A stretch of DNA of 64,000 nt from Polyangiales bacterium. Its GTDB lineage: Bacteria; Myxococcota_A; Polyangia; Polyangiales; Ga0077539. Positions 6,131-64,000 of this stretch are shown in pieces. The DNA is taken from contig JAWKRC010000007.1 in assembly GCA_041389825.1 (NCBI GenBank), positions 125,093 to 189,092 of the forward strand. Direction: 5' to 3'. The stretch's first letter is position 1. Every line of letters begins with the position of its first letter. The position numbers and the translations under genes were made by a program. Below the pieces are notes generated by a model. It made no database searches, had not been told where the DNA came from, and saw nothing but the letters and a program-made list of their open reading frames with translations.

Positions 6131-6730
6131 ATGAGCCGCAAGCCCGCCTGTTCCGTCTCCGTCACCGCCCCCGCGCCCGCCGAGGCCGACCCCTTCGACG
6201 CCATCGAGCGACACGTCGACGCCGTCGATCAGGCCACCACGGGCCTCCAGCCCCTCGCCGCCGAGAAGCGCGCCACCACCGCGCGCGGCGTCGGCACCCT
6301 CGTCGAGCCCGCCCGCGCGCTGTGCGCCGTGCTCACCACCGCCCCGAGCGACCCGGCGAAGGTCCCGCGTCACAAGCGCCTCGTCGGGGCCTTCGATGTC
6401 ATCGCCGCGCACGACGGCGGAGACGACCCTGAGCGCTTCGAGCCCGAGGCCATCTCCGCGAAGCTCGACCGCGCCGCACGCGCGACGGCGCTCGCCGATC
6501 GCCTCGACGGCCTGGCGCGCAGGCTCCGCGACGACGCGCTCCGCACCACCGAGTCGGTCTCGCGACCGATCACCATGGCGCTCGACCTCGCCCGCACCCT
6601 CGCCCGCGGAGACTTCGCCGACGAGCTCGTCCCCGTCACCGACGCCCTCGCGGCCCTCACGGCGAAAGCCCGACGCGCGCCGAAGGCCGAGCCCGCGACG
6701 GAGCCCGAGGCCGACGCCGACGCGGAGTGA
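6131..6730 (+). CDS. hypothetical protein
   Basis: 199 aa from internal ATG (MSRKPACSVSV...) with a GAUUCC-like spacer upstream and a strong GC3 bias. No recognisable domain; Ala/Asp/Arg-rich and probably helical. Confidence 0.45.
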   Translation: MSRKPACSVSVTAPAPAEADPFDAIERHVDAVDQATTGLQPLAAEKRATTARGVGTLVEPARALCAVLTTAPSDPAKVPRHKRLVGAFDVIAAHDGGDDPERFEPEAISAKLDRAARATALADRLDGLARRLRDDALRTTESVSRPITMALDLARTLARGDFADELVPVTDALAALTAKARRAPKAEPATEPEADADAE

Positions 6731-6733
6731 ATC

Positions 6734-8877: not shown

Positions 8878-8888
8878 GGTCTATCCCC

Positions 8889-27271: not shown

Positions 27272-29194
<1,923 letters not shown>

Positions 29195-29312: not shown

Positions 29313-29627
29313 TCAGGGTGCGGTCGAGGAGCGCGCGGGTCTCGGGACCCAAGGCCGAGGGGGTGTCCTGCGCGGCCTCGCGGGCGAGGGCGAGCCAATG
29401 ATGCTGCGGCCGCGCGCTGGAGGCGCGCCGAGGTCGCCGCGGAGGTAGAGGTACCGGGACCCGCCCGTCGCGGTCGAGGTGGGCGAGGCCGGGGTAGAGG
29501 TCTCGAGGCTGCTGAGGGCGTGCTCGTAGCGGGCGGCGTGGTAGTGCGCGTCGGCGCGGTCGAGCTGGTCGCGGTAGTTCGTGCAGCCCGCCGCGAGGGC
29601 GAGGGCGAGGAGCATCAGCGCGCGCAT
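29313..29627 (-). CDS. small putative lipoprotein (possibly frameshifted at 3' end)
   Basis: [42 protein letters not shown]... signal plus lipobox. The distal part is Pro/Arg-rich and may be out of frame. Confidence 0.3.
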
Positions 29628-30164
29628 CGGGGCGGGAGGATATCCCTTGCGGGCGCTGCGAAAGCGAGGGGGAGAAACATTGCGGCCCCGCTCCCTCGGT
29701 GCGGAGGGGCGGGGCTGGGCGAACGCTCAGGAACTCTGTGGAGGATCGAGGACGAAGCGCGGACGAAGGAAGAGGGACGAAGCGAAGAGCGTTAGGAACG
29801 AAGCTCAGGTCAAGGTCGTCGAAGCGAAGAGAAGATCACGACGGATCAAGCCAAGTGACGACGCGGCGGCGCCCGCGCCGTAAGCAGTGAACAAGCGAGC
29901 TGGCCTCGCGCGCTCCGATGTCGCCTGGGAAAGCCCTTCGGAGCGCGGTGCCGATGCGGAGTCGGCTCAAGCAACCTAAGCGGGTTCTGGGTGAGCAACG
30001 TCGGTGCCAACGCGAGAGATTGCGCGAAGCACCGGTTTTCTCGCGCAGGGCGCGGGCGCACGCGGTGCCGAACCCGGGTGGGGCCCGACATCGCGGGGGT
30101 CAGGGCTGACACGGATGTCGCGGGGTGACCGCGGCGCCCGCCGACACGCGGGGCGGGCGGTGGG

Positions 30165-34097: not shown

Positions 34098-37000
34098 TCA
34101 CGCGGGCGCGGGCTCGAAGCGCGTCAGCCGGCGCAGGCGCTCCTCGAACTGCTGCTCGAGCCCCGCGTCGCCCGCGGCGCGCGCGTTGAGCGCGGCCCGG
34201 CGCCACGCGCTCACCGCCGCGCGACGGTCACCCTGGAGCTCCGCGGCCTCGGCGAGCTCGGCGTCGCACTGGGCCACCAAGGCCAACGCGCCGACCGACT
34301 CGGCCACGGCGCGCGCCTCGTCGAGCGTGCCCACGCCGTCGAGCCCCGCGAGCCTGCGCGCCCGCGCGAGCCGCAGGAGCACGTCGGCGTGCTGGCGCCG
34401 GTGCGCGTCGTGCGTGAGCGGCCCGCGCATCGCGTCGCGCAGGATCGCGTCGGCCGCCGAGAGGGCGTCGACGGCCTCGCGGTGCGCGCGGTCGAGGGTC
34501 TCGAGCTCCGCGCGCATCAGCAGCAGCTCCACCGCCACGGACCGCGACCGCTGCGGCGCGCGACCGAGGCCGCGTTGTCGAGCGCGCGCAGCCCCTCGGC
34601 GCGACGCCCCCGCGCGAAGAGCGCGCGGCCGAGGGCACCCTCGAGGCGGGCCCACTCGCCCGTGCCCCGCGTCGCCACGCCGAGGCCCTCTCGCAGCACG
34701 CCCTCGGCCTCTGAGGCGTCGCCCGCGCGCACCAGGGCCTCGCCGAGCTTGCGCGCGAAGATCACCATCGCCCGCTCGGGCTCGTCGAGCTCGCCCCGCG
34801 CGAGCTCCCGCCGGGCGATCTCGAGCCCGCGGCGCAGGGCCAGCGCCGCCGCCGCGTCGTCGCCGCGCGCGAGGGCGCGGTCGCCCACGCGCTCCAACAG
34901 AAGGAGGCTGCGGAAGGCGTCGTCGCCGTGCTCGGCGTGGAGGGCGCGGACCTCGAGCGGCTGGTCTTCGGAGCCCTCGACCTGCGTGCACGCGCGGTGG
35001 AGCTCCTTGCGAAGCGTCGCGGGCGTGCCGGCGTCGATCACCTCGCGCAGGAGCGGGTGCGCCACGCGCAGGCTCGGCACCGGCCGTGAGTGGTCGAGGC
35101 TGACCCAGCCCCGCTCGTCGAGCATCGCCACGGCCGCCTCGTCGCACGGGACGCCCGCGACCTCGGCGACCTCCTGAGGGATCGCCTCGCCGAGCACCGC
35201 GAGGGCCTGGAGCACCCGGCGCGCGTTCACGGGGAGTCGCTCGACGCGCGCGCCGATGAGGTCGACCATGCGCTCGGGCGCGGTGCCGCCGCCCTCGGTG
35301 TTCCAGCGGATGAGCTGCTCGAGGTGCAGCGGGAGGATCTCGTCGGGCGGCATCCGCAGGTCGTCGAGGCCGGGCCGCGTGACCGAGAGCACCGTGCGCG
35401 CGACCTCGACGGGGATGCCCCCGAGGTGGAGGGTCTCTCCCCTCGCCCACGGGACGTGCATCCGCGGGCCGTGGGTGAACACCAGGAAGACGCCGAGGGG
35501 CACGGGGCGCGCGAGGAGGCCCGCGAGCACGCGCACCGAGGCCGCGTCCATGCGGTGGATCTGCTCGAAGACCACAAAGGCGGTGCGGCCGCGCGCGCGG
35601 AGGCCCTCGCGCAGCGCGAAGATCAGCGCGCGGACGGCGGCCTCGGCGCGGGCGCGCGCGTCGAGCTCCACCGCGCCCTCTTCGGTGAACACCTCGACGA
35701 AGCCCGCGCGCTCGGTGGGGTCGATCTCCATCCCCTCGGCGACGCGCTTGTCCATCCAGTCGACGGGGAACTCCGCCGCGCGCAGCCCGAGGAGGTCTCT
35801 CACGCAGCTCGCCACCGCCGCGTAGGGCACGCCCGCCCACGTCGGGTCTGGGCCCGTCACCACCACCAGCGTGTCGCTGTGGCGCGCGTTCTCGACCACC
35901 GTGAGCACCAGCCTCCGGCGCCCCGAGCCCTCTTCGCCCACCACCCTCAGCGGCACGAGCACGCCCGCCGAGGCCCGCGCGCGCGCGAGCTCCAGCAGGC
36001 TCAGCTCCGCCTCGCGGCCCACCAGCGGCAAGCCCGTGAAGCCCTGCCCCTGCTCGGACATCCGCGGCGGCCGCGTGCTCGCGCGGGGCGACTCGGGCTC
36101 GGTGAGCGGCAGCGCGCCCGGCCCCTCGGGGGGCGACACCTTCGCGCCGCACTCCCCGCAGAACTTCAGCCCCGGCGGCACCGACGCCCCGCACGACACG
36201 CAGGGTCGACCGACGCCCTGCGACCGCGGCGGGTCGCTCGGCGGCGTGCGCGACACGTGCGTCGCGAGCTGCAGCGCCTCAGCGAACTCGAGCCCCGTCT
36301 GGTAGCGCAGCTCGGGGTCCTTCTCGAGGCCGCGCATCAGCACCTCGATGAAGGCCTCGGGCAGCTCCGGCGCCCAGGTGCGCGGGTCGGGCGGGGATCG
36401 CCCACGTGCATCAAGAGCACCTTGCGCGGGTCTTCAGACTCGAAGGGCAGGCGCCCCGTCACGCAGTAGAACAGCACCACCGCGGCGGAGTACAGGTCAC
36501 TGCGCGGGTCGGGCGGCAGGCCGCGCGCCTGCTCGGGCGCCATGAAGTCGGGCGTGCCCGGAACGAGCCCGGGGAGGTCACGCCGGGCTTGTCGTCGCTG
36601 CGGATCTTCGCGAGGCCGAAGTCGACCATCTTCACGAAATCGCCGCCGGTGCGCAGGGGCTCGACGAGGATGTTCTCGGGCTTGATGTCGCGGTGGATGA
36701 TCCCCTGGTCGTGCGCCTCGGCGAGCGCGGCGAGCACCTGACGGATGATCTCCGCGGCGCGCTCGTGCGCGATCTGGCCTGACTCCCACACGACGCGCGC
36801 GAGGTCTTGCCCGCGCAGGAACTCCATCACGAGGAAGAGCAGCCCGTCTTCGGTGCGGCCGAAGTCGAGCACGCTCACGCAGTTGGGGTGGTTGAGCCGC
36901 GAGCACGCGCGGGCCTCGGCGTAGAAGCGCGCGACGGCGCTCTCTTCTCCCGCGAGGTGAGGGTGGATCACCTTCACCGCGAGGGTCTTGCCGAGCGAGG

Positions 37001-37193
37001 CCTGCTCCGCGCGGTACACGCGCCCCATGCCCCCCGCGCCCACCGCCTCGAGGATGAGGTACCCCCCGCCGAGCGTGCGACCGATGAGCGGATCGCCCGA
37101 CGTGGCCCGCAGCGCCGCGATGGGGAAGCCGCAGCTCGGGCAGTAGCGGTGTTCCTCCGCGACCTCGGCGCGGCAGCTCTGGCAGGTGCGCAA
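34098..37193 (-). pseudogene. large Ser/Thr protein kinase with Zn-ribbon, kinase domain, AAA/STAND-like region and TPR-like C-terminus; at least three frameshifts
   Basis: N-terminus with CPSCG zinc ribbon and kinase subdomains (GAGGMGRVYRA, HRDIKPENIL, DFGLAKI) lies in ORF 36459..37193. The activation loop to APE (GTPDFMAPEQARG...DLYSAAVVLFYCVTGRLPFE) is in the frame of ORF 36337..37212. The continuation (LMRGLEKDPELRY...LVGREAELSLLEL...) lies in 34517..36343. A TPR-like end lies in the frame of 34098..36194. Confidence 0.6.
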
Positions 37194-47160: not shown

Positions 47161-49641
<2,481 letters not shown>

Positions 49642-49811
49642 TGCAGAGTTCCCCCGCGGGCGACGCCCGCCGCGCAGACCGGATCACCGCGTCGCGCGAC
49701 GATAGTCACTCCGTTTTGGGAAGGCAACGGCACGTCGCCTGCACATCCGCACCGTTCTGCGCGCAGCGGCGTGGTTTGCTCCGGCGCGGTGTCGGGCGGT
49801 AGAGATACGCC

Positions 49812-50363
49812 ATGCGGTCGACGGCGCTGGGCGATTGGACCTCCTTCGCGTGGAACCTCCCGACGCTCCTCCTGTGCGGGGCGGCGGCGGCGGTGGGCCT
49901 CCTCGCGGCGCGGTCGCTCTACCGCGACGCGCTCCCGGCGCGCGCGCGGGCGCTGCGCTGGTCGCTCGTGGGCTGGAGCGCCACGACCGCGGCGCTGCTC
50001 TCGCTCTTCGCGTGGCCGTACCTCACCGCGTTCTCGACCGTGCACGTCGAGCCCGACGGGGCGTGGCGCCTCAGCAATTACCTCGGCGTGACGGTCGCTC
50101 GCGTGCCCGCGCGCGAGCTGCGGCGCGTGCACGGCGAGGACCTCGGCGGCCTCCGCCGCGGCGCGGGTCGCCTGCGCGTGCAGCGCGCCGACGGCAGCTA
50201 CGTCGACTCGGTGCGCATCAGCGGCGCGCGCTTCGACGCCGCGTGCGCGGCGCTGGGCTACGACGACCTCTCGCTCCTGCCGTCGGTGCACGGCGTCGTG
50301 ACGGCGCCGCACGCCTGGTCGCCCCTCGGGCCGCGCCTGCCCGCGACCCTCGCCGCGAACTGA
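49812..50363 (+). CDS. hypothetical membrane protein
   Basis: 183 aa with two N-terminal TM segments. Confidence 0.45.
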   Translation: MRSTALGDWTSFAWNLPTLLLCGAAAAVGLLAARSLYRDALPARARALRWSLVGWSATTAALLSLFAWPYLTAFSTVHVEPDGAWRLSNYLGVTVARVPARELRRVHGEDLGGLRRGAGRLRVQRADGSYVDSVRISGARFDAACAALGYDDLSLLPSVHGVVTAPHAWSPLGPRLPATLAAN

Positions 50364-50918
50364 CTACGGCGCTCGCGAGAGCCGCGCGCCCTCGCTCGTC
50401 GCCTCGACGCTCAGGCCCAGCGAGGCGGCGCGGCGCGCGCACATCGCGTCGACGGGAGGAGCTCGCGAGGCGCGCACGATCACCGCGTCGTCGTCGCTCG
50501 TGACCGAGGCGCCCGGGAGGTCGAAGAGCGCGCGGAGCAGCCGCGCGGCGTCGGCGCGGTGACCGCGCACGGTGAACGGTCGCAGCGGCGCGCGGACCTC
50601 GACGCGCATCGACGCCCCCACGGCGAGGGCCACCGCCCACAGGTCGAACTCGTCTTCGCTGCGCCAGCGGCGGGCGAGCGCGCAGCGGACCAGCTCGGTC
50701 GCGCGGCGGGCTCGGAGCGTCACCGGGGAGAGCTCCTCGGCCGCGAGCCCCGCGGGGAGCGCGCGGAGGGTCGCGCGGACCTCGGCGAGGGCCACGGCCA
50801 CGAGCGACGCGAGCTCGGCGGACCACGGCCCTCGGGGCGGCGGAGACCAGCGGGCGCGGCGGCGCGCGCGGCGGGCGCGGCGGAGCGATGCGGCCAAGCG
50901 GCTCCCGGCGGAGGTCAT
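50364..50918 (-). CDS. hypothetical protein
   Basis: 184 aa from internal ATG (MTSAGSRL...) with a strong GC3 bias. Its start region overlaps, in antisense, the first ~100 nt of the called 797-aa ORF, and the true start of that GspE gene is further downstream. Confidence 0.4.
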   Translation of the reverse strand: MTSAGSRLAASLRRARRARRRARWSPPPRGPWSAELASLVAVALAEVRATLRALPAGLAAEELSPVTLRARRATELVRCALARRWRSEDEFDLWAVALAVGASMRVEVRAPLRPFTVRGHRADAARLLRALFDLPGASVTSDDDAVIVRASRAPPVDAMCARRAASLGLSVEATSEGARLSRAP

Positions 50919-51018
50919 GCGACGTCGTGCCTCGGCGCGAGGGTATAGGACAGCGCTCCGTGGCGTCGACGCGCGGCGCCGTGACCGCGCCGTCGACCTT
51001 CGGATACCGTCGCCCTCC

Positions 51019-52965
51019 ATGGACGGGCGAGACGAAGCCGGGGAGTACGGTTGGGAGGAGCGGCCGCGGTACCGACGGCTGCTCGCGGCGCTCGACGACG
51101 TGGTCGACGCCGCCGCGTCGCTGCGGCAGCTCCTGGTGAACGCGGGCGACCTCCTGCACGCGCTCCTCGACGCCGAGCGCGTCGCGGTGTGGGCCGTCGA
51201 CGTCCGCAACCAGTCGCTCTACAGCCTCGCGCGCAGCGGGGGCGAGACGGCCACGCTCCGCCTCGCGCTCGACGAGAGCTCGGTGCCCGGCTTCGCGGCC
51301 ACCACGGGTCGCACCGTGTGCCTGCGCGACGTGAGCGACCCCGCCGAGCGCGCGCGCTTCTCCCCTCGCCTGCGCCACGACCCCGCGCGGGACGTGGGCG
51401 CGGGCAACGCGGCGAAGCAGCTCCTCGTCGCGCCGATGCGCGGCGACGCGGCGGTGCTCGGCGTGATCGAGTTCGTGAACAGCCTCGACGGCAACGACTT
51501 CCAGGTCGACGACATCCGCCTCGCCGAGCAGATCGCGCGGATGATCGGCAAGAAGCTCGACGCGCTCACGCGGCCCGCCCCGCCCGCGCCGCGGCCGCCG
51601 ATCCCGTCGGCGCAGCCCACGTCGGCGCGGCCTCCGCCGATGACGGCGAGCGCGGGCCCGCAGTCGAAGGCCGTGCAGCGCCTCCTCGACCAGATCGCGC
51701 GCAACGCCCGCGACGAGTCGGCCGACGACGACGCGCTGGTCGACGACCCCGGCGAGGGCGCGCGAGAGCCCGAGGCCCTCGCGGTGCGGCTCGTGCGGCA
51801 GATCGTGATCGACGCCGAGGCCGCGCGCGCGTCGGACGTGCACATCGAGCCCGGCGCGTCGGGCAAGCCCACCAAGGTGCGCTTCCGCGTCGACGGCGAC
51901 TGCGCGGACTACGTGATGATCCCGGGCGCCTTTCACGACGCGCTGGTGGGCAGGCTCAAGGTGCTCGCCAACCTCGACCTCGCCGAGCGCCGACGGCCGC
52001 AAGACGGGCGGCTCCGCGTGCGCGGCCCCGCGGGCCCCATCGAGGTGCGCATCGCGACCTTGCCCACCGTGGGCGAGCGCGAGGACGTGACGCTGCGCCT
52101 CCTCGCGGGGTGGCGCACGGTGCCCTTGGAGGGACTGCACCTCTCCGACGCGAACCTGCGGCGCTTCTCGTCGCTCATCGCGAGCCCCTACGGGATCGTG
52201 CTGGTGACGGGGCCCACGGGTTCGGGCAAGACCACCACCCTGCACGCCGCGCTCGGGGTGCTCAACACCGCCGACCGCAAGGTGCTCACCGTCGAAGACC
52301 CCGTGGAGATCGTGCAGCCGGGGCTGCGGCAGGTGCAGGTGAACGCGCGCATCGGGCTGGGCTTCCCCGAGGCGCTGCGGGCCTTTCTCCGGTCGGACCC
52401 CGACGTGATCATGGTGGGCGAGATGCGCGACCGGGTGACGGCCACCATCGCCGTCGAGGCCTCGCTCACGGGCCACCTCGTGCTCTCGACGCTCCAGGCG
52501 AACAGCGCGATCGAGACGGTGCCTCGGCTCCTGGGCATGGACATCGACGCCTACGCCTTCGCCGACGCGCTCCGCGGGGTGGTGGCGCAGCGGCTCGTGC
52601 GGAGGCTCTGCGAGCGCTGCCGAGCGCCCTTCGCGCCGACGCCCGAGGAGTGGGCGCGCCTGTCGCGGGCCTACGGCGAGGGAGACTTCGCGCGCCTCGC
52701 GGACCGCAGCTCGATGGAGTTCTCGCTGCACCGCGCGGCGGGCTGCGCCGACTGCGGCGGCACCGGGTACAAGGGCCGCGTGGCGATCCACGAGATCCTC
52801 GTGGGCACCGACCCCGTGCAGGACCTCATCCGGCACCGGGGGACCATCGACGAGATCCGCGCGGCGGCGGCGGCCGACGGGATGACCACGATGCTTCAAG
52901 ACGGCGTCGAGAAGGTGCTCCGGGGCCTCACCGATTTCGACCAGGTGCGCGCGGCCTGCGTGTGA
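51019..52965 (+). CDS. GAF domain-containing GspE/PilB-family secretion ATPase
   Basis: Start at MDGRDEAGEY... An N-terminal GAF-like domain (...AVWAVDVRNQSLYSL...VPGFAATTGRTVCLRDV...GVIEFVNS) is followed by the full T2SS/T4P ATPase core: Walker A GPTGSGKTT, Asp box, Walker B IMVGEMRD, His box, and a tetracysteine CxxC...CxxC zinc motif. Confidence 0.8.
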   Translation: MDGRDEAGEYGWEERPRYRRLLAALDDVVDAAASLRQLLVNAGDLLHALLDAERVAVWAVDVRNQSLYSLARSGGETATLRLALDESSVPGFAATTGRTVCLRDVSDPAERARFSPRLRHDPARDVGAGNAAKQLLVAPMRGDAAVLGVIEFVNSLDGNDFQVDDIRLAEQIARMIGKKLDALTRPAPPAPRPPIPSAQPTSARPPPMTASAGPQSKAVQRLLDQIARNARDESADDDALVDDPGEGAREPEALAVRLVRQIVIDAEAARASDVHIEPGASGKPTKVRFRVDGDCADYVMIPGAFHDALVGRLKVLANLDLAERRRPQDGRLRVRGPAGPIEVRIATLPTVGEREDVTLRLLAGWRTVPLEGLHLSDANLRRFSSLIASPYGIVLVTGPTGSGKTTTLHAALGVLNTADRKVLTVEDPVEIVQPGLRQVQVNARIGLGFPEALRAFLRSDPDVIMVGEMRDRVTATIAVEASLTGHLVLSTLQANSAIETVPRLLGMDIDAYAFADALRGVVAQRLVRRLCERCRAPFAPTPEEWARLSRAYGEGDFARLADRSSMEFSLHRAAGCADCGGTGYKGRVAIHEILVGTDPVQDLIRHRGTIDEIRAAAAADGMTTMLQDGVEKVLRGLTDFDQVRAACV

Positions 52966-53022
52966 ATTCGCCCGCCCGCGGGAACAGCCCCCGCGCGCGT
53001 CGACGTTGGTACCATCGCGCGC

Positions 53023-54411
53023 GTGACCACCGCTGAGACCACCGTGATGGTCGTCGAGGACGACCGCTCGAACCTCGAGTCGCTCGAGCGCCTGCTCTCG
53101 CGCGAGGGCTACCGCGTGGTGACGGCGCCCGACGCGCGCACCGCGCTCGACCTCCTTCGGCGGCAGCGCGTGCCCGTGGTGGTCACCGACCTGATGATGC
53201 CGGGCCTGTCGGGCCTCGACCTCCTCAAGGCCATCAAGGCCGTGGCGGCCGAGACCGAGGTGATCCTGATGACGGCCTACGGCACCGTCGAGACGGCGGT
53301 CGAGGCCATGCGCGGCGGGGCCTATGACTTCGTCGAGAAGCCCCTCAAGCGCGTGCAGATCGTGAAGAGCGTCGCGAAGGCCGTCGAGCGCGCGTCGCTC
53401 GTGGCCGAGAACCGCACGCTGCGCGAGGCGCTGTCTCACCTGCGAAAGCGGGAGATCATCGGGAGCTCGCCCGCCCTCCGTCAGGTGCTCGAGGTGGCCG
53501 CGCAGGCCGCGCCCTCGATGGCCACTGTGCTGATCCTCGGCGAGTCGGGCACCGGCAAGGAGCTCCTCGCGCGCTACGTGCACTCGCGCTCGCAGCGGGG
53601 GTCGGGGCCCTTCATCGGGGTGAACTGCGCGGCGATCCCCGAGACCATCCTCGAGGCGGAGCTCTTCGGCTACGAGAAGGGCGCGTTCACTGGGGCCGTG
53701 CAGCGCCGCGAGGGGCGCTTCGCGCAGGCCAAGGGCGGCACGCTCTTCCTCGACGAGATCGGCGAGCTCAGCCCCGCGGTTCAGGTGAAGCTCCTGCGCG
53801 TGTTGCAGGAGGGGGAGTTCGAGCCCATCGGCGGCCGCACCCAGCGCGCCGACGTGCGGGTGGTGGCCGCGACCAACCGCGACCTGCAGTCCGAGGTGAG
53901 CGCGGGGCGCTTTCGCGAGGACCTCTTCTACCGCCTCAACGTCATCGCCATCACCGCCCCGCCGCTGCGCGCGCGGCCCGGCGACGTGCCGCTGCTGGTG
54001 GAGCACTTCCTCCAGGTCTTCGGCGAGCGCAACGGCAAGGGGCCCTTCACGGTCACGCCCGCCGCGATGGAGAAGCTCTCGGCGTGGACGTGGCCGGGCA
54101 ACGTGCGGGAGCTGGAGAACACCATCGAGCGCGCGGTGGTGCTCTCGCGGAGCACCACGCTCGACCTCGGGGATTTGCCCAAGCCCATCGTCGAGACCGA
54201 GCAGCCGCGGGCCGAGCTGGTCATCGCCGTGGGCACGCCGCTCGAAGAGATCGAGCGCATGGTGATCCGCGAGACGCTCCGCGCGACGGGCGGCGACAAG
54301 CGGCTCACCGCGCAGCTCCTCGGGATCGCGACGCGCACGATCTATCGCCGCCTCGCCGAGGAGCGCGACGGCGCCGTGAAGGACGGCGACGACCCCGACC
54401 TCGACGACTGA
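53023..54411 (+). CDS. sigma-54-dependent response regulator (NtrC/PilR-type: REC + AAA+ sigma-54 activator + Fis-type HTH)
   Basis: 462 aa. VMVVEDD, acceptor region [18 protein letters not shown] Walker A, GAFTGA sigma-54 contact motif, and a C-terminal HTH ([18 protein letters not shown]). Confidence 0.85.
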
Positions 54412-54440
54412 CCCTTGGCCATGTGCCAGTATCCCTCCCC

Positions 54441-56084
54441 ATGGCGAGGACGGGATTCCACTCGCGGTTCACCTTCGGCGAGCGGGGGATGTCCCCCGTC
54501 GGTCGAGTGACCCTGACCACCTTCGTGCTGGCCTTCGGCCTGCTGCTCACGGGCGCGGGCCTGCTCTTCGGCGCGCGCGCGGTGCAGTCCGCCCTCGACC
54601 CCACCGACGCGCTCTACCGCGTCGCGCGGCCCGCGCCGGCCGACGGCCCCGTGGTCCGCGGGCCGGTCACGGTCACCGCCGACACCGCGCCGCGCGCGTT
54701 GTGCCACGTGCAGCACCAGCACTACGTCTCGGGCAAGAACGGCGGGTGGCGCACCGACTGGCGCGGCAACGTCTTCCGCGGCGCCTCGGTGGAGCACCGC
54801 GGGCGCACGTACAGCCTCGAGGTCGACGGCTACCTCACCGCGTTCGAGCCGTCGCGCACGCGCGTCGCGCCCGACGGGCTGCGGCTGTGGACGCCGCGCT
54901 TCCGCTCACTCCCCGGGGGAGGCCGCGTGGTGGAGCAGTGCCTCAGCCCCGGCGAGCGCGTGTTCATCGAGGCGTGCCGACAGCCGGGCCGACCGTGGGT
55001 GCTCAGCGACTGCCCCGACTACCCGATGCGCCTCACGCAAGGCGACAACGGCTCGGGCCAGCCTCGCGTCGACGCCCGCGCCAACGCGCTCGCCGCGCAG
55101 GTGTCGGGGGGCGCGCTCGGGGTGCTCGCGCTGCTCCTGTGGGCGTGGTTCCTCGTGCGGTCGCGGCCCCTGTCCGAGGCGCTCCGCCGGCGCGCGGGCG
55201 TGCGGAAGGCGAAGTTCCCCGCGGCGGTGGTCGCCGGCGCCGTGAGCGCGCCGATCTGCTTCGCGGTCGCGCAGGGCATCGTCGTGGGCGGCGTCGACCG
55301 CGAGAGCGCGTGGGACTACTTCCAGGGCGGGTACACCTTCGGCGTCGCGGTGGTCTCCTTCGCGCTCGCGCTCGCGTACCTCGTCTACGCGCGGCGGCGC
55401 GCGCTCGACGAGGCGATCCGCCCCGTGGTCGACGCGCCGACGGTGCGCGTGTGCGACGCGCGCGGCGGCGTGGTCGAGCTCGCCGTCACCGTCCCGCCCG
55501 ACGCGCCCACCGTGGTCGGGCCCGTGAGCGGCAGGCCCCACGCGTGGGTGCGCGTCGTCGTCGACGAGGTCGTGCAGCACGGCAAGCAGATGCTCACGCA
55601 GCGCGCCGCGGCGTGGTCGTCGGCGCCGAGCGTGCCGGTGCGCGACGCGTCGGGGGTCGGCGCGCTCGAGATGAACCACGCCGAGCTCGACCTGCGCGCG
55701 CGGGTCGTGACGGTGAAGCACGGGAGCAAGCCCGAGCTCCTCGCGGCCGTGGCGCGCGTGACGGGGGCGCGGCTCCACCCGGCGTCTACACACCTGCGCT
55801 GGATCATCGAAGAGGGCTTCGTCGACCCCGGCGAGTCGCTCTACGCGCTCGGCGACTGCCGCCGCGTCGAGGACCCGAAGGCCGCGGCCTCGTACCGCGC
55901 CGACGCGACGCTCCCGGTGGTGGGCGGCCAGCGCGGCGCCGAGCTCGTCGTGCACGCCGGCGACGAGCGCTCGCTCCTCTCGTCGCTGCGCAGGGAGCGC
56001 GTGCTCCTCGACCTCGTGGGCGCGGCCTTCGTCGGGCTCGCGGCGTCGCTCGCCGCCGTGCTCGCCGCCCTCGCCTCGCGCTGA
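54441..56084 (+). CDS. hypothetical membrane protein
   Basis: 547 aa from internal ATG (MARTGFHSRF...). One N-terminal TM, a central cluster of TM helices, and a C-terminal TM. Confidence 0.5.
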   Translation: MARTGFHSRFTFGERGMSPVGRVTLTTFVLAFGLLLTGAGLLFGARAVQSALDPTDALYRVARPAPADGPVVRGPVTVTADTAPRALCHVQHQHYVSGKNGGWRTDWRGNVFRGASVEHRGRTYSLEVDGYLTAFEPSRTRVAPDGLRLWTPRFRSLPGGGRVVEQCLSPGERVFIEACRQPGRPWVLSDCPDYPMRLTQGDNGSGQPRVDARANALAAQVSGGALGVLALLLWAWFLVRSRPLSEALRRRAGVRKAKFPAAVVAGAVSAPICFAVAQGIVVGGVDRESAWDYFQGGYTFGVAVVSFALALAYLVYARRRALDEAIRPVVDAPTVRVCDARGGVVELAVTVPPDAPTVVGPVSGRPHAWVRVVVDEVVQHGKQMLTQRAAAWSSAPSVPVRDASGVGALEMNHAELDLRARVVTVKHGSKPELLAAVARVTGARLHPASTHLRWIIEEGFVDPGESLYALGDCRRVEDPKAAASYRADATLPVVGGQRGAELVVHAGDERSLLSSLRRERVLLDLVGAAFVGLAASLAAVLAALASR

Positions 56085-56088: not shown

Positions 56089-56943
56089 TCAGCCCGCCCG
56101 CAGCGACACCCAACGGAACCACCGCATCCGCGCGTGCGTCTTCGCCGCGAGCGCCGCGAGCCGCGCCGCGCACAGGAACACCACGGCCGTCGTCGTCTCG
56201 TTGCGCCCCACCAGCAGCCCGAGCGCCGTCGCCAGCGCGGGCCCCGCGGCCCCCCCGGCCGCGAAGAGCGCCGCCGCCGCCGCGGTCTGCAAGGGCCTGC
56301 GCGCCATGGCCGACCCGGCCTTGATCGCGGCGCGGTGCGCGGTCATGCCCTGGGCGACGGCGAGGGTGCGGGCCACGTCGTGCCACACCGACGCGAGCAC
56401 CGCGAGGAGCGCCGCGGGGAGCATCGCCGCGAGCGCGCGCGCGTGCGCCGACGCGCCGCTCACCGTGGCGTTCGCGGGGTCGAGCGCCCAGCGCCACGAC
56501 TGCCACGCGAGCGCGGCCGAGACCGCGAAGGCCCCGCCCGCCACCGCCGCGAGCGCGAGGAGCGTGGGCGCGCGGCGGAGCGACTCGGCCGCGGCGCGGT
56601 AGAGCCGCGGGGGTCGGGCCCCCATCGCGAGCGCGGGGAGCACGCCGCCGAAGAGCGACCACGCGAGCGCGTACGCGAGAACCAGGGCGAGCAGGGAGAC
56701 CGCGGCGACGTCGACGACGCCGCCGTGGAGGCGCGCGAGGTCGAGGAGGTAGCGGCCGTCGTCGAGCCAGAGCGCGCCCGCGCCCGCGGGGTGGCGCGCG
56801 AGCGTGGCGCGCACCGGGCCGAGCGCGACGGCGGCGAAGGCGAAGGACACCATCGCGTGCAGGGCGGTGATGGCCGCGAGCGCCGGGCCGCGGCCCTCGA
56901 GCGCGAGCACCCACGGGGCGCGGTCGCGACCCGCGCCGATCAC
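56089..56943 (-). CDS. hypothetical polytopic membrane protein
   Basis: GTG start overlaps the stop of the upstream M1 peptidase reading (GTGA). About 8 hydrophobic helices. The N-terminal 195 codons of the called ORF are artefact. Confidence 0.5.
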   Translation of the reverse strand: MIGAGRDRAPWVLALEGRGPALAAITALHAMVSFAFAAVALGPVRATLARHPAGAGALWLDDGRYLLDLARLHGGVVDVAAVSLLALVLAYALAWSLFGGVLPALAMGARPPRLYRAAAESLRRAPTLLALAAVAGGAFAVSAALAWQSWRWALDPANATVSGASAHARALAAMLPAALLAVLASVWHDVARTLAVAQGMTAHRAAIKAGSAMARRPLQTAAAAALFAAGGAAGPALATALGLLVGRNETTTAVVFLCAARLAALAAKTHARMRWFRWVSLRAG

Positions 56944-58846
56944 GGCCCCACGCTCGCGAGCACGAGGGCGACCCACCACGCGACGCGCGCCGTCAGCGAC
57001 GCGGTGTGGCCCGCGGGCTCGACGGTGCGGACGTCGTTGGTGCGGTCGGCGTCGACCTCGATGCGGCGGTCGGGGTCGAGCCGCACCACGCGCAGGGGAG
57101 CGTCGCCCGCGTAGGGGATGGTGAGCGAGGGCGAGGCGCTGTCCCAGGTGACGCGGCGCCGGCGGCCGCGGGAGTCTTCGAGCTCCACCGAGGTGGGGAG
57201 CTGGAAGGGGCCTTGCCGCTGCACCACCACGCGGCCCACCCACCGGTCGCGCTCGCGCCAGCAGTCGGCGACGGTGACGCGCTGGTCGAAGGTCCACGCG
57301 GTCTCGAGGGCGGGTCGCACGAAGCCGTCGACGAGGCGCGCGTCGAGGTTCGCGCGCAGCGCGCGGTAGAAGTCGTTGGGCGTCGGGTGCGTGAAGCGCG
57401 CGGCGTCGGCGTAGGCGCGCATCGCCGCGGCCCACGGGCCTCGCCCGCGAGGCGCTCGGCCGTGCGCAGCACCGCGGTGGTGCGGGCGTAGACGTGCGTC
57501 GCGTAGCTGCCCCACGTGGGGAACTCACCCGCGCCGAGGTCGACCGGGAGCGGCGCGCGCACGCCCCCGCTCGCGTGGCCCTCCTGCGCCCAGACGCCCA
57601 CGCCCGGCACGAGCCCGCGCGTCGCGTAGAGCGGCGCCGACGGGCCGTAGAGGTCGGCCATCACCCTCCCCGTGGCCCACTCGCACAGGCCCTCGTCGAG
57701 GAAGGGGTGGCGGTGCTCGTCGCTCGCGAGGAGCCCGTAGAAGTACTGGTGCCCGAACTCGTGCACCGTGACGTACTCCGTGAAGCGCGTGAGCGAGAGC
57801 GCGCGCCCCGCGGGGGAGTAGGGCTCGGCGTCGACGGTGATGAGCGTGGGGTACTCCATCCCGCCGGCCTCGTCGGCGCCGCGCGGGGGGATCACCGCCG
57901 TCAGCACGGGGTAGGGGTACGGCCCGAAGCGGCGCGCGAAGGCGGGCATCGCCGCGGAGAGCACGCGCGAGACGCGCTCGGCCGCCGCGCCGTCGCCGGG
58001 AGGGTGCAGCACGCGGAGCGAGACGTGGCCCACGCGCGACGCGTGCTCGACGAAGCGGGGCCAGGCCGTGAAGGCGAAGTCGTGCACGCCCTCGATGGCG
58101 AAGCGGTGCACGGTGACGGACCCGCGCGCGACGGGGGCTGACGCGACGCCCGTGGCGCCCACGACCCACCCGCGGGGCACCGTCACGCGGACGTCGTAGC
58201 GGCCGAAGTCGCTGTAGAACTCGCTGTTGGCGTGAAAGGGAAAGGTCGCCCAGCGCCCGTCGCGCTCCCGCACCGCGACCTTCGGGAACCACTGCGCCAC
58301 CATGTGGAAATCGCCGCTGTAGCCCGTGCGCGCGATCACCTCGGGCAGCGTCGCGTCCCAGCGCGCGCGCAGGCGCACGGTCTCTCCAGGGGCCACCGGG
58401 CGCGGCAGCGCCACGCGGAGCTGCGTCGCGTCGTCGGGGTAGAGGGGGTCGCCGACGCTCCCCGCGAGCAGGTCTTCGCCCGACTCGAGCCGGAGCTCCC
58501 GCAGGTCGATGCGGCCCGGGTGCGCGACCGCCGCGTGCGTGGCGCGCGAGCGCATGAACACCGACCGCTGGTCGCGGAAGGCGTTGAGGTAGAGGTGCAG
58601 CCACAGCGAGGTCGCCGGGGTCGCCGAGCGGTTCGTCCACGCGATGACGCCCGTGGCGCGCACCGCGTGGTGGGCCGCGTCGAGGGTCGCGTCGATGTCG
58701 TAGCTCGCCGTCTCGACGGGCTGCGCGCGCGCCGAGCCCGCCGCGGCCGTCACCGCGATCGCGCACGCGACCGCGGCGCCTCGTGGGCCGCGCCTCGACG
58801 CGCTCGCGCCGGGCCGCGCGACGGTGGCCTCACAGCCCGCGAACAT
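56940..58846 (-). pseudogene. M1-family (aminopeptidase N-like) zinc metallopeptidase with signal peptide, frameshifted near 57.45 kb
   Basis: Start at MFAGCEATVARPG... (signal AVACAIAVTAAAGSARAQP). HEFGHQYF zinc motif with the downstream E (LDEGLCEW). Reading breaks after ...TAVLRTAERLAG, and the C-terminal domain continues in the frame of ORF 56940..57515. Confidence 0.6.
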
Positions 58847-58970
58847 GGCCCCGTGTCTATCACACCTGCCCCTGCGACCTGCACACCGCGACGAGGGCAG
58901 ACGTCTCGCCGCGCGAACGGATATCCTGCGGCGCGCGCCCCCGCAGGGCGCAGGAGGTCCGAGGCCGCCC

Positions 58971-61900
58971 ATGCAACGCCGTCCCCTCGCCGCGCTCATC
59001 ACCGCGCTCGCCCTGGCCGCCTGCTCGGGCGGGTCTGAGATCCCCGCGACGCGAGACGCCGCCGCGACCGACATCGCGACCGACATCGCCGCCGACATCT
59101 CCCCCGACGTCACCCCCGACGCGGGCGGGTGCCGGGCCGACGACGACTGCGCCTCAGACCCGTCGGGCGCGCGCGCCTGCGACACCGCCACCGGCCGCTG
59201 CGTCGCGTGCGTTCCCGAGCGAGACACCTGCCCCGCCGACCAGCACTGCGTCGCCGCGACCCACGCCTGCTCCCCGGGGTGCCGCAGCGACGAGGGGTGC
59301 TCCACCGCGACCACGGGCGACGCCGGCGCGCCCGACGGCGGCGTCGTCTCGAACGGCCGCTGCGACACCGCCGCGCACGCCTGCGTCGACTGCGTGACCG
59401 ACGACCACTGCCCGCCGGGCCTCCTCTGCGTGGGCCACGCGTGCGTCGTGGGCTGCACCGCGACCTCGCGCTGCCCCGACGGGCAGACCTGCTGCCCGGG
59501 CGCCTCGGGCGCCATGGGCGCGTGCGTCGACCTCTCGGCGAACGCCGCCTCGTGCGGCGCGTGCGGCGCCGCGTGCTCGACCCCCAACGGGGTGCCCGCG
59601 TGCGAGCGCGGCGCGTGCGCGACGGGGCGCTGCACCGCGCCCTTCGCCGACTGCGACGGCGACGTCGCCAACGGCTGCGAGACCGACACGCTCACCGCGG
59701 TCGCGCACTGCGGCGCCTGCGGCGTCGCGTGCCCCGCGCGCGCCAACGCCACCGCGACCTGCTCGGGCTCGTCGTGCGGATTCACCTGCGACGCGGGCTT
59801 CGCCGACTGCGACGGCGACCCCGAGAACGGCTGCGAGGTCGACACGCGCACGTCGCTCCTGCACTGCGGCGCGTGCCGCGCGGCCTGCGAGGTCGCCAAC
59901 GGCACGGGGGCCTGCGCGGCGGGCGCGTGCACCGTCTCGGCGTGCAACGAGGGCTTCGGCGACTGCAACGGCGCCGTGGCCGACGGGTGCGAGACCGACA
60001 CCCGGGTCACGCCCGCGCACTGCGGCGCGTGCGGCACGGCCTGCGCGATCCCGGCGAACGCGTCGCCCGTGTGCGCGGCCTCGACCTGCGGCCTCGGCGC
60101 GTGCGACGCGGGCTTCGCCGACTGCGACATGAACCCGGCGAACGGATGCGAGGTCGACACCCGCACGACCCTCGCGAACTGCGGCGCCTGCGGCGCGGCC
60201 TGCGCGCCCTCGAACGCCACGGGCGCGTGCGTCGCCGGCGCCTGCCGCGTCGCCGCCTGCGCCGACGGCTTCGCCGACTGCGACATGGACCCGGCGAACG
60301 GATGCGAGGTCGACATCCGCGTGGCCGTGGGCGACTGCGGCCGCTGCGGAAACGCCTGCCCCACGCCCCCGTCGGGCACGCCCGCCTGCGTGGCGCGCGC
60401 CTGCGGCGTGGGGATGTGCGCCGCGGGGCGCGGCAACTGCGACGGCAGCGACGCGAACGGGTGCGAGACCGAGACCGTGACCAACGTCTCGAACTGCGGC
60501 GGCTGCGGCAACCGCTGCACCGCGCCGCCCAACGGCGCGGCCGCGTGCGTGGCGAGCGCGTGCACCCTCGGGGCCTGCAGCGCGGGCTTCGCCAACTGCG
60601 ACGGCTCGGCGTCGAACGGGTGCGAGGTCGACACCGACAACGACGCGGCGAACTGCGGCGGGTGCGGCACGGCCTGCTCCTTCGCGAACGCGACGCCGCG
60701 CTGCGCCGCGGGCCGCTGCGCGCTCGGCGCGTGCGGGTCGGGCTTCGACAACTGCGACGGGGCGAGCGCGAACGGGTGCGAGACCTCGCTCAACACCGAC
60801 CCCGACAACTGCGGGGCGTGCGGGGCGCAGTGCTCCTTCGCGAACGCGGCGGCGCGGTGCGTGGGCGGCGCGTGCGCGCTGGGCGCCTGCGCGGCGGGCT
60901 ACGGCAACTGCGACGGGAGCACGGCGAACGGCTGCGAGTCGGACCTCAACTCCGACCCGCTCGACTGCGGCGCGTGCGGCCGCGCGTGCGCGGCGGGGTC
61001 GACCTGCGAGGCGGGGCTGTGCCAGTTCGCGGGCGGCACCACCACCCTCACGGTGGGGAGCGGGACGCAGACGGTGAACACCGTGCGCGCGTCGGTGAAC
61101 TCCACGTCGGGGAGCCCGACGATCACCGTGTCGAACGTGCAGGGCACCTTCGCGCCGGGGCAGCGGGTGCTGCTGCACCAGACGATCTCGACCACGTCGG
61201 CGATCGTCGCGGGCACCTACGAGTACCGGCAGGTCACGCTGGTGAACGGGACGACGCTGACCCTCGACCGGGCGCCGTCGGCGGTCTACCGCACGAACTC
61301 CACCGACCGCGCGCAGGTCGTCGTGGTCGAGCGCTACGCGGCGGTGAACGTGGCCGCGGGGGCGACGCTCACCGCGCCGGCGTGGGACGGCAACGTCGGC
61401 GGCGTCCTCGCGGTGGACGTGGCCGGGGCCTTCGTGAACGCGGGCACCGTCACGATGAGCGGCCGGGGTCTGCGGGGCCGCGGACACGCGTGCACGTACC
61501 AGTGCGCGCGCGGCTACCAGGGAGAGGGCTCGTCGGGCTTCGGCGGGGCTGACATCACGCGCAACGGCAACGCGGGCGGCGGCGGCGGCGCGGGGCAGGA
61601 CGACGGCGCGGGTGGCGGCGGCGGCCACGGCACCGCGGGCGGCAACGGCGGCGCGGGCACCTGCGGCATCTGCCGCGAGGCCTGCCCCGTGCCGGGCGGG
61701 CTGGGCGGCGCGGTGGCGGGCACGCCGTCGCTCGCGTCGCTCGCGCTCATGGGCGGCGCGGGCGGCGAGGGCGGCGCCGACGAAGACGGCGGCAACCCCG
61801 GGATCGGCGGCGCGGGCGGGGGAATCATCCTCCTGCGCGTCACCACCCTCTCGAACACGGGCGCGATCTCGACCGACGGCGCGGGCGGCGCGGGCGGCAA

Positions 61901-62181: not shown

Positions 62182-63336
62182 TCAGCGCTCGTTGCCGAAG
62201 GGGTCGGCGTAGCGCGGGTCGGTGAGGAACACCGGGTCGGTGAGCGACTCGAGGAAGGCGATGAGGTCGGCGCGCTCGTCGTTGGTGAGCGCGAAGCCGC
62301 GCACGAAGCCCGACTTGAAGGGGTTGGCCGAGCCGACCCCGGCGTTAGGGCCCGAGGTGATGGTGCGGCCGCCCGCGGAGTAGTGGTCGATCACGCCGTC
62401 GAGGGTCGCGATGGAGCCGTCGTGCATGTAGGGCGCGGTGACGGCGATGTTGCGGAGCGTGGGCGCGCGGAAGCGGCCCATGTCTTCGGCGACGCCGGTC
62501 TGCATGTGGAGCCCGGTGTCTCCCGCCGGGTACGCGCCGCGGCCGTCGACGTTGTAGAGGCCGGTGTTGTGGAAGGCCGTCTCGTCGAAGGCCGAGCGCG
62601 CGTGGACCACGGAGTCGGTGAGGTTGAAGCCGCCGTGGCAGTGGAAGCACTCCAGGGTCTCGGAGTTGAAGAGCGCGAAGCCGCGGAGGGCGGAGGCGGA
62701 CATCGCCGAGGCGTCGCCGCGCTGGTAGCGGTCGAAGGGTGAGTTCGCCGAGAGGAGCGAGCGCTCGAAGGCGCCGATGGCGCGCGTCACGTTGTCGACC
62801 GTGAAGGGCTCGGCCTGACCCGGGAACGCGCGGGGGAAGAGGTCGCGGTAGCGCGCGTCGGCGCGGAGCCGGTCGAGCATCACGGACTCCATCCCCGCGA
62901 GGCCGAGCTCGACGGGTCGCTCGCCGAACATGGGCAGGAGCGCCTGCTGCGGGAGCCTGCGCTGGATGGTGCTCGCCCAGGTGAGGGCGGAGCTGTAGCC
63001 CGCGTTGGCGAGGCTCATCGACGCGCGGAAATGGTGCTCGCCGGTGGAGCCCAGGGCCGTCGCGCGGCCGTCGGTGAAGGCGAGGCTCTGCCGGTGGCAC
63101 GAGCCGCAGGAGGTGGTCTCGTTGCCCGAGAGGCGTCGGTCGTAGAAGAGCCAGCGGCCGAGGCGGGCCTTGTCGACGCTCCAGGGGTCGTCAGCGGGCA
63201 CGCGCTGCGCGGGGAAGTTCGGCGGCGGCGTGATGCTGAGCTCGGGCTCGGTCCAGATCGATGACGGGTCGGGGTCGCCGCCGCAGCCCGCGACGGCGAG
63301 CGCGACGGCGGCGATGCAGGCGCGGAGGGGGTTCAT
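62182..63336 (-). CDS. di-haem cytochrome c peroxidase family enzyme (MbnH/MauG-like), lipoprotein
   Basis: Start at MNPLRACIAAVALAVAGCGG. Two haem-binding CxxCH motifs (CGSCH and CFHCH) with typical CCP spacing. Confidence 0.75.
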   Translation of the reverse strand: MNPLRACIAAVALAVAGCGGDPDPSSIWTEPELSITPPPNFPAQRVPADDPWSVDKARLGRWLFYDRRLSGNETTSCGSCHRQSLAFTDGRATALGSTGEHHFRASMSLANAGYSSALTWASTIQRRLPQQALLPMFGERPVELGLAGMESVMLDRLRADARYRDLFPRAFPGQAEPFTVDNVTRAIGAFERSLLSANSPFDRYQRGDASAMSASALRGFALFNSETLECFHCHGGFNLTDSVVHARSAFDETAFHNTGLYNVDGRGAYPAGDTGLHMQTGVAEDMGRFRAPTLRNIAVTAPYMHDGSIATLDGVIDHYSAGGRTITSGPNAGVGSANPFKSGFVRGFALTNDERADLIAFLESLTDPVFLTDPRYADPFGNER

Positions 63337-63371
63337 CGGTGGGGCTCCCGCGGGGCCTCGCGCGAGGCGGG

Positions 63372-64000
63372 TCACTCTACGCGGAAGAAGGTCTGCGCGC
63401 CTGCGGTGGAGCCGACCGTGATGCCGAGGTTCCTGAAGAGCGGCGCGCACTCGGGGTCGGTGAGCCCGCTCATGCACCCCGGCGCCATGGAGCTCGTGCC
63501 GAGGTCAGAGTCGGCCACGAGGCGCGAGAGGTCGGCCACGACGGTGTTGCTCGTCGGGTCGAAGCCCATGAGCGTGATGGTCGGGCGGTTGGGCTCGGTG
63601 CAATTCGTGACGTTGCCCATCGCGCTGCCGTCGCACCCGGTGCTCCCGAGGTGGATGTTGAACGACGGCATCAGCATCGTCCCCATCGCGTCGTCGACGC
63701 GCCCGTCGAGGCGGAGGAACTTGTACCCGCCCTGCCAGTTCCACCAGAGCGTCGAGAGGTTGAGCGGCGAGGCCGCCGTCGCGCTGTTCTGGTGGTTCTG
63801 CGCGAAGGGCACGCCGAGCGTGAAGCGCACGCCCGCCCAGGGCCCCGCCGCGCCCGCCGGGAGCGTGCCGCGCACCACGCCGTTCGTCTCGGTGGTGCCG
63901 TTGTTACAGAGGCCGGTGCGGGCTTCGTAGTCGGGCAGCGCCTCGTGCCCGTCCTGCCAGCGGCCGTCGTCGGTGAGCGTGACCGACACCTCGCTCCCGT
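63372..64000 (-). CDS. MbnP-like partner protein of the di-haem peroxidase ("metallo-mystery pair"), 5'-partial at window edge
   Basis: Lies directly upstream of, and same-strand as, the MbnH-like gene. Trp-rich (LWWNWQGGYKF) with several Cys. No signal peptide is seen from the first in-window Met, so the gene continues beyond 64000. Confidence 0.5.
   Translation of the reverse strand, partial: GSEVSVTLTDDGRWQDGHEALPDYEARTGLCNNGTTETNGVVRGTLPAGAAGPWAGVRFTLGVPFAQNHQNSATAASPLNLSTLWWNWQGGYKFLRLDGRVDDAMGTMLMPSFNIHLGSTGCDGSAMGNVTNCTEPNRPTITLMGFDPTSNTVVADLSRLVADSDLGTSSMAPGCMSGLTDPECAPLFRNLGITVGSTAGAQTFFRVE

Follow-up and report, generated by a model that had tools for sequence, protein, structure and literature searches.

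The 64,000-nucleotide stretch of a Polyangiales genome analyzed here (contig JAWKRC010000007.1; hereafter the window) encodes a 648-residue ATPase in which a GAF sensor domain is fused to a complete PilB/GspE-type core, as a sequence-only reading of this DNA had proposed. The architecture is already known from databases in a longer form, GAF-MshEN-T2SSE; what appears to be new here, as judged by alignment with relatives, is a version that lacks the MshEN domain and carries a glutamine in the His box. The GAF-MshEN-T2SSE family is large, widespread, visible in databases and experimentally uncharacterized, and orphan status is the rule for all of it and not special to this locus. We see about an even chance that the protein is a hexameric ATPase gated by a ligand of its GAF domain and acting in trans, its GspF/PilC-type platform being encoded at another locus. 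Besides, comparative gene order indicates that the position of the ATPase gene next to an NtrC-type regulator and a membrane protein is a recent, lineage-specific accident, and the three genes should not be annotated as a unit. The ATPase gene and the parts of its product are as follows.

51019–52965, plus strand: GAF-T2SSE ATPase gene, the core of the finding; 648 residues, Pfam GAF and T2SSE
51124–51552, plus strand: GAF sensor domain, residues 36–178 (Pfam PF01590, AlphaFold, Foldseek)
51571–51768, plus strand: Pro/Ala-rich linker, where relatives have MshEN (T2SSE_N) (alignment A1)
51772–52947, plus strand: PilB/GspE-type N2 plus C-terminal ATPase core, residues 252–643 (Pfam T2SSE; phmmer against the PDB)
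52210–52233, plus strand: Walker A, GPTGSGKT, residues 398–405 with K404; invariant in alignment A1
52396–52443, plus strand: atypical Walker B and catalytic Glu468, DPDVIMVGEMRD, then RDRVTA (motif and alignment)
52465–52509, plus strand: His box, LTGHLVLSTLQANSA; H486 retained, second His replaced by Gln493 (STLQANSA)
52609–52755, plus strand: tetracysteine zinc motif C531, C534, C576 and C579; invariant in alignment A1

NCBI lists a 100% identical protein as 'GspE/PulE family protein [Polyangiales bacterium]'; it is encoded on a 307-kb contig of a metagenome-assembled genome (MAG), where the neighbors of the ATPase gene bear the locus tags R3A52_05815 and R3A52_05835. A Pfam scan assigned residues 36–178 to GAF (PF01590; E 7.4e-10, 39.9 bits against a cutoff of 22.4) and residues 252–643 to T2SSE (PF00437; E 5.8e-109), and returned no match to T2SSE_N/MshEN (PF05157). 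Residues 8–192 were modeled by AlphaFold in a GAF topology (predicted local distance difference test score, pLDDT, 90.7; predicted template-modeling score 0.87). When this model was searched with Foldseek, 439 PDB matches were obtained at E≤0.001, the best 50 of the 439 being all GAF-fold proteins and the top ones being cyclic-nucleotide GAF domains (Lcd1-cAMP 5W10, E 3.7e-11; PDE10A GAF-B; PDE5A). The Pfam match, the modeled topology and the Foldseek matches identify the N-terminal domain as GAF; the sequence-only reading had allowed that it might prove to be the ordinary GspE N1/N2 domain, and this was not what we found. With the cyclic-nucleotide GAF domains of Lcd1 (bound to cAMP), PDE10A (GAF-B), PDE5A and PDE2A, the domain has the same fold (TM-score ∼0.7, Foldseek E 1e-11 to 1e-8), yet it is only 18–24% identical to them. 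An NKFDE-like stretch, FVNSLDGNDFQVDD, occupies residues 152–165; its N..G..F...D pattern is conserved in alignment A2 of the GAF domains, in which N147, G151 and D158 (numbering of that alignment) are invariant. A GAF-only profile search of 1.8 billion representatives recovered the same GAF type in many multi-GAF signaling proteins, and this type of GAF is therefore not family-defining.

When compared with solved structures by phmmer, the core scored 318 bits against PilF, 297 against GspE and 296 against PilB (PilF, GspE, PilB and EpsE together spanning 288–318), and 119 against PilT. By these scores its nearest counterparts are PilF, GspE and PilB, all assembly ATPases, with PilT far below. 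TIGR02533 (GspE) was the best-scoring NCBIfam model at 426 bits (equivalog cutoff 630), with TIGR02538 (PilB) at 398 bits (equivalog cutoff 675.65) and TIGR01420 (PilT) at 162 bits (cutoff 319). The window protein shares with PilB and PilF (Geobacter metallireducens 5TSG/5TSH, Thermus thermophilus 5OIU/5IT5, Myxococcus xanthus 3JC8) the N2 plus C-terminal core (290–318 bits), Walker A as well as Walker B, the Asp box and the zinc site, but it falls below the TIGR02538 cutoff, has GAF instead of the MshEN/GSPII N-terminal domains and Gln in the His box, and its gene does not adjoin pilT or pilC. Similarly, it has the core and the zinc motif in common with GspE/EpsE (4PHT, 1P9R, 4KSR), whereas it scores below the TIGR02533 cutoff, lacks the GspL-binding N1E domain and is accompanied by no gsp operon in the window. 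In PilT and PilU, as in the window protein, N2 is not preceded by an N1 domain; however, the similarity to PilT is much weaker, and PilT has neither a GAF domain nor the tetracysteine motif (PMC5424180). The latter motif is specific to the PilB/GspE clade (PMC5424180) and is complete in the window protein.

Among the relatives in alignment A1, Walker A, the catalytic Glu468, the Asp box (TVEDPVE, residues 424–430), T484, H486 and the tetracysteine site are all invariant. Two active-site positions depart from the canonical pattern. Only the first of the two conserved His-box histidines, H486, is present, while the second position is Gln493, which, counted from the catalytic Glu and from the first His, matches H420 of GmPilB and H229 of PaPilT. 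This second His contacts the gamma-phosphate (PMC5424180), and the H229A exchange abolished twitching and left PaPilT inactive in vivo (PMC6858323). The other departure lies in the Walker B stretch (DPDVIMVGE468MRD), behind which V473 stands where canonical relatives conserve Glu. The ratio of nonsynonymous to synonymous substitution rates (dN/dS) among close orthologs was 0.04–0.2 in the core, 0.3–0.5 in the GAF domain and ∼1 in the linker, and the gene has a third-position GC of 0.97. These substitution rates indicate that the ATPase gene is under purifying selection and is not decaying.

A homology search returned 7,999 of the 8,000 scored candidates at E≤1e-20. The usual architecture among the 120 matches listed is a protein of ∼766–840 residues with an N-terminal GAF, then MshEN (T2SSE_N), then the T2SSE core. 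These long forms, named 'GspE/PulE family protein' or 'PilB-like protein/GAF domain-containing', are encoded by stand-alone genes without pilus or secretion neighbors, have a GAF (30–55% identical) and a core (52–65%) homologous to those of the window protein, and are annotated in Nitrospirota, Acidobacteriota (Vicinamibacteria, Thermoanaerobaculia), Desulfobacterota and Myxococcota. The window protein is homologous to them in GAF and core but differs in the absence of MshEN and in having Gln493 and Val473, both shared with a Polyangiales clade, in place of His and Glu. Alignment A1 shows the window protein and about a dozen relatives of 632–670 residues to have a Pro/Ala-rich linker instead of MshEN, at the position of which the long relatives have ∼170 extra residues annotated as PF05157. 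The short-form orthologs of the ATPase are uniform in length (632–648 residues) and fall into at least 10 clusters at 57–61% identity.

The top 28 matches, from Polyangiales and related Myxococcota, form the clade in which the second His-box His has become Gln (STLQ[AS]N); the other 92 of the 120 relatives listed keep the His. Of the 28 clade members, 27 also have Val or Ile instead of the Glu that stands five residues behind the catalytic one, and the two positions covary across the 120 proteins listed, Glu occurring with His in 92, Val or Ile with Gln in 27 and Glu with Gln in 1. A neighbor-joining (NJ) tree of the core, which carries no support values, nests the short forms at two distinct places within the long-form Polyangiales clade, which suggests that MshEN was lost twice, independently. 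Since it lacks MshEN and since the short forms are nested among long ones, the window protein is a derived variant and not a typical family member. The c-di-GMP-binding MshE of Vibrio cholerae (VC0405) belongs to the same ATPase clade, and the long relatives carry Pfam MshEN. This domain is a c-di-GMP receptor with tandem RLGxx(L/V/I)(L/V/I)xxG... motifs (PMC5013675); with MshEN deleted, the MshE-type route of c-di-GMP input would therefore be unavailable to the window protein.

The breadth of the family and the isolation of its genes emerged from a scan of one genome per species, which yielded 80 loci spanning Nitrospira (with Ca. N. defluvii represented by a complete genome), Acidobacteriota, Thermoanaerobaculia, Desulfobacterota and Syntrophales as well as Geobacteraceae, Methylomirabilia, Rokubacteria and Myxococcota. 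Across 83 loci, no gene of a type II secretion system (T2SS) or type IV pilus (T4P) recurred within 10 kb. When 1,241 open reading frames (ORFs) called in 88 loci were clustered, the largest cluster of neighbors was represented in at most 10 loci. The annotated clusters (ProS, RseP, CdsA, Dxr, UppS, Maf, an ABC ATPase and MutS) reflected lineage-level housekeeping synteny, and those of signaling type comprised PilZ (9 loci), REC and NtrC-type activators (6 loci, the distance varying). Among 137 directly adjacent genes assigned to Pfam families, PilZ was registered seven times, and T2SSF, pilin and secretin were absent from the 25 most frequent families shown. Three further long-form loci were orphans as well. 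A literature search for the GAF-GspE/PilB architecture found no paper describing the GAF-MshEN-T2SSE family.

PilZ genes adjoin long-form members in two distant phyla. The Polyangiales gene (L005, 9535–9927; L006, 1028–1420; L-numbers denote the loci compared) lies 74 bp upstream of the long-form gene on the same strand, and in Nitrospira (L017, L020–L022, L025, L045 and L052) one to three PilZ copies lie just downstream in convergent orientation. This adjacency is a hint that the long forms receive c-di-GMP as an input, one that would be missing from the MshEN-less window protein. Seven Desulfobacterota loci (L043, L054, L057, L064, L067, L084 and L086) contain a pair of MglB-like (Roadblock/LC7) and MglA-like (Ras-type GTPase) genes 0.1–7 kb from the long-form gene, in L086 directly downstream of it. 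The pair may reflect lineage synteny or a link to the control of polarity and motility.

At ∼74% GC, raw ORF lists of the window are swamped by spurious frames, and genes were therefore called by the GC signal at third codon positions. The following genes surround that of the ATPase.

47161–49641, minus strand: Lon protease
49812–50363, plus strand: 183-residue protein with two transmembrane (TM) segments; weak candidate for a partner
50364–50897, minus strand: 177-residue ORF without family match, divergent from the ATPase gene and part of an indel described below (third-position GC 0.94)
53044–54411, plus strand: NtrC-type sigma-54 response regulator (Pfam REC, Sigma54_activat, AAA_lid_14 and HTH_8)
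54441–56084, plus strand: 547-residue membrane protein (mem547), five TM segments predicted by hydropathy
56089–56979, minus strand: 296-residue membrane protein
56993–60808, minus strand: 1271-residue protein with an M1-peptidase-like region

As the sequence-only reading had described, the NtrC-type regulator and mem547 follow the ATPase gene on the same strand, at intergenic distances of 78 bp (ATPase to NtrC) and 29 bp (NtrC to mem547). The regulator has the features of an enhancer-binding protein, with GAFTGA at residue 213, TDLMMPG at residue 48 and a Fis-type helix–turn–helix. No Pfam or NCBIfam family matched mem547, which has 35 homologs, all named ones being from Myxococcota. Its two halves (each TM, beta-rich domain, TM) are weakly alike (25% over 84 columns, E 0.013), and L091 contains a tandem pair of its paralogs (6396–9545). 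The 177-residue ORF between the 183-residue gene and that of the ATPase had been overlooked earlier; it has no Pfam or PADLOC match and no homolog in any of the loci compared.

The claim that structural genes of a T2SS or T4P are missing nearby held for the entire 64-kb window: Pfam, run on essentially all called genes, detected no T2SSF/PilC, pilin, secretin, PilM/N/O or GspL, and neither pilT, pilC, pilM–Q nor a gsp operon was present. A histidine kinase was likewise absent within 40 kb of the locus, the nearest HATPase domain being located at 7660–8556. Rfam reported no riboswitch or small RNA, either at the gathering score for the whole window or by E-value for 49.6–54.5 kb, and the PADLOC defense models gave generic P-loop and AAA+ matches only.

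The 183-residue protein is the only gene product encoded near the short-form ATPase in both of the gene contexts in which the latter occurs. A homolog (57% identical) is encoded ∼2.3 kb upstream of the ATPase gene in L001, L002, L004, L100 and L101, where the gene context is otherwise unrelated to that of the window. The 183-residue gene is also found in L092, a related Polyangiales contig, there without the ATPase. Since the pairing occurs in both contexts, it is most simply explained by an ancestral linkage and a loss of the ATPase in L092; the link is not obligatory, because L092 keeps the 183-residue gene alone. A low-confidence structure model (pLDDT 65) combines a TM hairpin with a beta-rich domain and a helix, and has a tentative likeness to bacterial PH-like proteins. 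We regard the 183-residue protein as a weak candidate for a partner of the ATPase.

The ligand, partner and output of the ATPase are what we infer from here on. The window protein would be a soluble, hexamer-forming ATPase of the assembly-type PilB/GspE clade, under the control of a GAF domain of cyclic-nucleotide-binding type at its N-terminus. The Polyangiales clade to which it belongs exchanged the His-box His for Gln and, five residues behind the catalytic Glu, a further Glu for Val or Ile; the lineage of the window copy then deleted the MshEN/N1 domain. A ligand on the GAF domain would control the activity of the hexamer, which would work in trans on a platform of GspF/PilC type, part of a type IV filament machine whose genes lie elsewhere in the large genome. 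As the example of PilT illustrates, docking is not known to depend on an N1 domain. The earlier suggestion of a ligand-gated ATPase with distant partners thus survives as the best reading, whereas the idea that it forms a shared module with NtrC and mem547 is not supported by gene order.

Several points weigh against such a trans-acting motor. The N1/MshEN domain that the protein has lost is the region for GspL binding in GspE and for c-di-GMP or PilZ input in PilB/MshE. The structural-gene scan, which covered the 64-kb window, identified no platform protein, pilin or other partner. By analogy with the inactive PilT H229A (PMC6858323), loss of the gamma-phosphate His may have crippled turnover. 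Moreover, loss of N1/MshEN and replacement of the His fit a non-motor role as well as a motor role. Finally, the ATPase, NtrC and mem547 genes may be co-transcribed in this genome, as they are separated by only 78 and 29 bp and no terminator was predicted.

It is accordingly conceivable, if rather doubtful, that the Gln-bearing clade, notably its MshEN-less forms, has left filament assembly altogether and that its members are GAF-gated ATP-binding switches or slow ATPases regulating another process. All 28 listed members of the clade have Gln in place of the gamma-phosphate His, 27 of them together with Val or Ile for the Glu, and mutations in the His-box and Walker B-region motifs of PilT-like ATPases impair ATPase activity and function (PMC5424180; PMC6858323). 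Loss of MshEN/N1 on two separate branches of the NJ tree, the lack of a recurrent machine gene beside family members in the loci examined, and the recurrence of PilZ genes and MglA/MglB-like pairs beside relatives would all agree with a signaling role, for which there is a precedent in that M. xanthus PilB is reported to signal to exopolysaccharide production (PMC5544727). On the other hand, a Gln would still be able to hydrogen-bond the gamma-phosphate, and a protein with an invariant Walker A, catalytic Glu, Asp box, first His, T484 and zinc site and a strongly selected core looks like a working enzyme; nor did the analysis turn up an effector. A more far-reaching version, which we consider unlikely, holds that the Gln-bearing clade represents a previously unrecognized class of PilB-derived signaling ATPases (GAF, Gln493, Val473, MshEN lost, apparently twice) that would no longer drive filament assembly but act as GAF-ligand-gated switches, possibly anchored by the 183-residue protein, and that the stand-alone family as a whole, beside which PilZ and MglA/MglB-like genes recur, would integrate second messengers so as to regulate polarity, motility or secretion and would not be a dedicated motor.

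That the ATPase, the NtrC-type activator and mem547 constitute one regulatory or secretory unit is very improbable. The three genes do lie on the same strand, separated by the small gaps given above and by no predicted terminator, and the same arrangement is found in L094. However, L092 retains the synteny of NtrC and mem547 in the absence of the ATPase. This contig is 93% identical to the window in Lon, 91% in NtrC, 86% in Maf, 64% in the 183-residue protein and 54% in mem547, and it matches the gene order of the window over ∼41–62 kb (ZapA, YggS, Maf, DHODH, a 370-residue protein, Lon, the 183-residue protein, NtrC, mem547, the 296-residue protein, the M1-like protein and proteins of 105 and 200 residues); within this syntenic block, neither the ATPase gene nor the 177-residue ORF is present. 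Their absence corresponds to the following segment.

50322–52992, no strand: 2.67-kb segment present in the window and in L094, replaced by 108 bp in L092 (blastn breakpoints)

It comprises the 3' end of the 183-residue gene, the 177-residue ORF and the ATPase gene. Blastn aligned 49001–50321 of the window with 7012–8365 of L092, and 52993–54413 with 8474–9891, placing the breakpoints at 50321/50322 and 52992/52993, and L092 conserves the ∼50-bp leader of NtrC up to the breakpoint. At the edges of the indel, a search for repeats detected none that were flanking, target-site-like or of mobile-element type.

The wider sample points the same way. The ATPase C-terminus lies directly upstream of NtrC only in the closest relative, L094 (NtrC 97% identical), so that the adjacency of all three genes is confined to L094 and the window. 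Eight loci with ATPase orthologs at 57–61% identity (L001–L004, L095, L098, L100 and L101) have wholly different neighbors, with no NtrC or mem547 homolog beside the ATPase. The mem547 homologs of three further loci (L089–L091) sit beside unrelated genes, without NtrC and without a GspE-type ATPase. Promoter searches add nothing in favor of a unit: a sigma-54 search (TGGCAC-N5-TTGC, up to two mismatches) found no site upstream of the ATPase gene or of mem547, the latter being where the sequence-only reading had suggested looking for one. The 13 matches in the whole window are fewer than the 45 expected from shuffling, and the only nearby one (49728–49742, upstream of the 183-residue gene, with two mismatches) is not above chance. 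A scan of 49.5–57.2 kb for sigma-70 promoters and intrinsic terminators found none and is uninformative at 74% GC. Comparative gene order thus largely refutes the three-gene module. Given the gene orders in L092 and in the ortholog loci, NtrC and mem547 are a pair of their own in a conserved housekeeping block, probably co-transcribed across their 29-bp gap, and the ATPase gene is an adjacent indel.

Finally, it is barely credible that the gene is a decaying, functionless paralog of a pilus or secretion ATPase: the domain deletion, the His-box substitution and the absence of the gene from the related L092 would fit such a history, but the intact ORF with its high third-position GC, the uniform length of the orthologs, the low dN/dS of the core and the invariance of the other catalytic and zinc residues disfavor pseudogenization.

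Some features elsewhere in the window deserve mention. The sole sigma-54 match with zero mismatches is a perfect −24/−12 consensus, TGGCACCGACGTTGC, at 29995–30009 (minus strand), upstream of small minus-strand ORFs without family match (e.g. 29313–29627). An MbnP-family protein (63372–63989, minus strand) adjoins a MauG/MbnH-type di-heme cytochrome c peroxidase (62182–63477, minus strand), a pairing familiar in copper-acquisition (methanobactin-associated) loci. Two genes look truncated, namely those for acetyl-CoA synthetase (27272–28264, plus strand; 330 residues with ACAS_N and the first part of AMP-binding) and HMG-CoA reductase (17972–18814, minus strand; profile positions 2–211 of 368), which could be due to frameshifts, pseudogenes or MAG assembly errors. 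An unusual two-component output is represented by a response regulator (6734–7663, minus strand) in which REC is fused to an Mrr-type restriction-endonuclease domain; its gene overlaps by 4 nt a HATPase_c gene (7660–8556, minus strand). Two adjacent minus-strand genes, for a short Ser/Thr protein kinase (36459–37193) and an AAA_16/TPR STAND-like protein (34517–36343), encode proteins that start with a zinc ribbon. Besides, the 1271-residue ORF (56993–60808, minus strand) has a repetitive N-terminal stretch of 450 residues (overlapping self-like tblastn matches) and a weak Peptidase_M1 match (E 8.8e-6); the orthologous region of L092 was called as a 633-residue M1 peptidase and a 1057-residue gene on the opposite strand, and one of the gene models must therefore be wrong. 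At a long distance from the ATPase indel lies a gene for a PD-(D/E)XK nuclease-family transposase (4913–5932, minus strand; PDDEXK_2, E 1.9e-39); no other gene resembling a mobile element was noticed in the window.

In summary, the message of the locus itself is negative, in that the apparent three-gene 'system' is a coincidence of gene order, while the family as a whole merits experimental attention. To our knowledge, PilB/GspE ATPases have been viewed almost exclusively as motors whose genes belong to operons for pili or secretion. The present work points to a very widespread, stand-alone family of GAF-bearing PilB/GspE proteins, one subclade of which has shed the c-di-GMP/N1 domain and altered the gamma-phosphate His. 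If its members are indeed trans-acting, ligand-gated motors or signaling ATPases, they would add an extra regulatory layer to the biology of type IV filaments in Nitrospira, Acidobacteriota, Desulfobacterota and Myxococcota.

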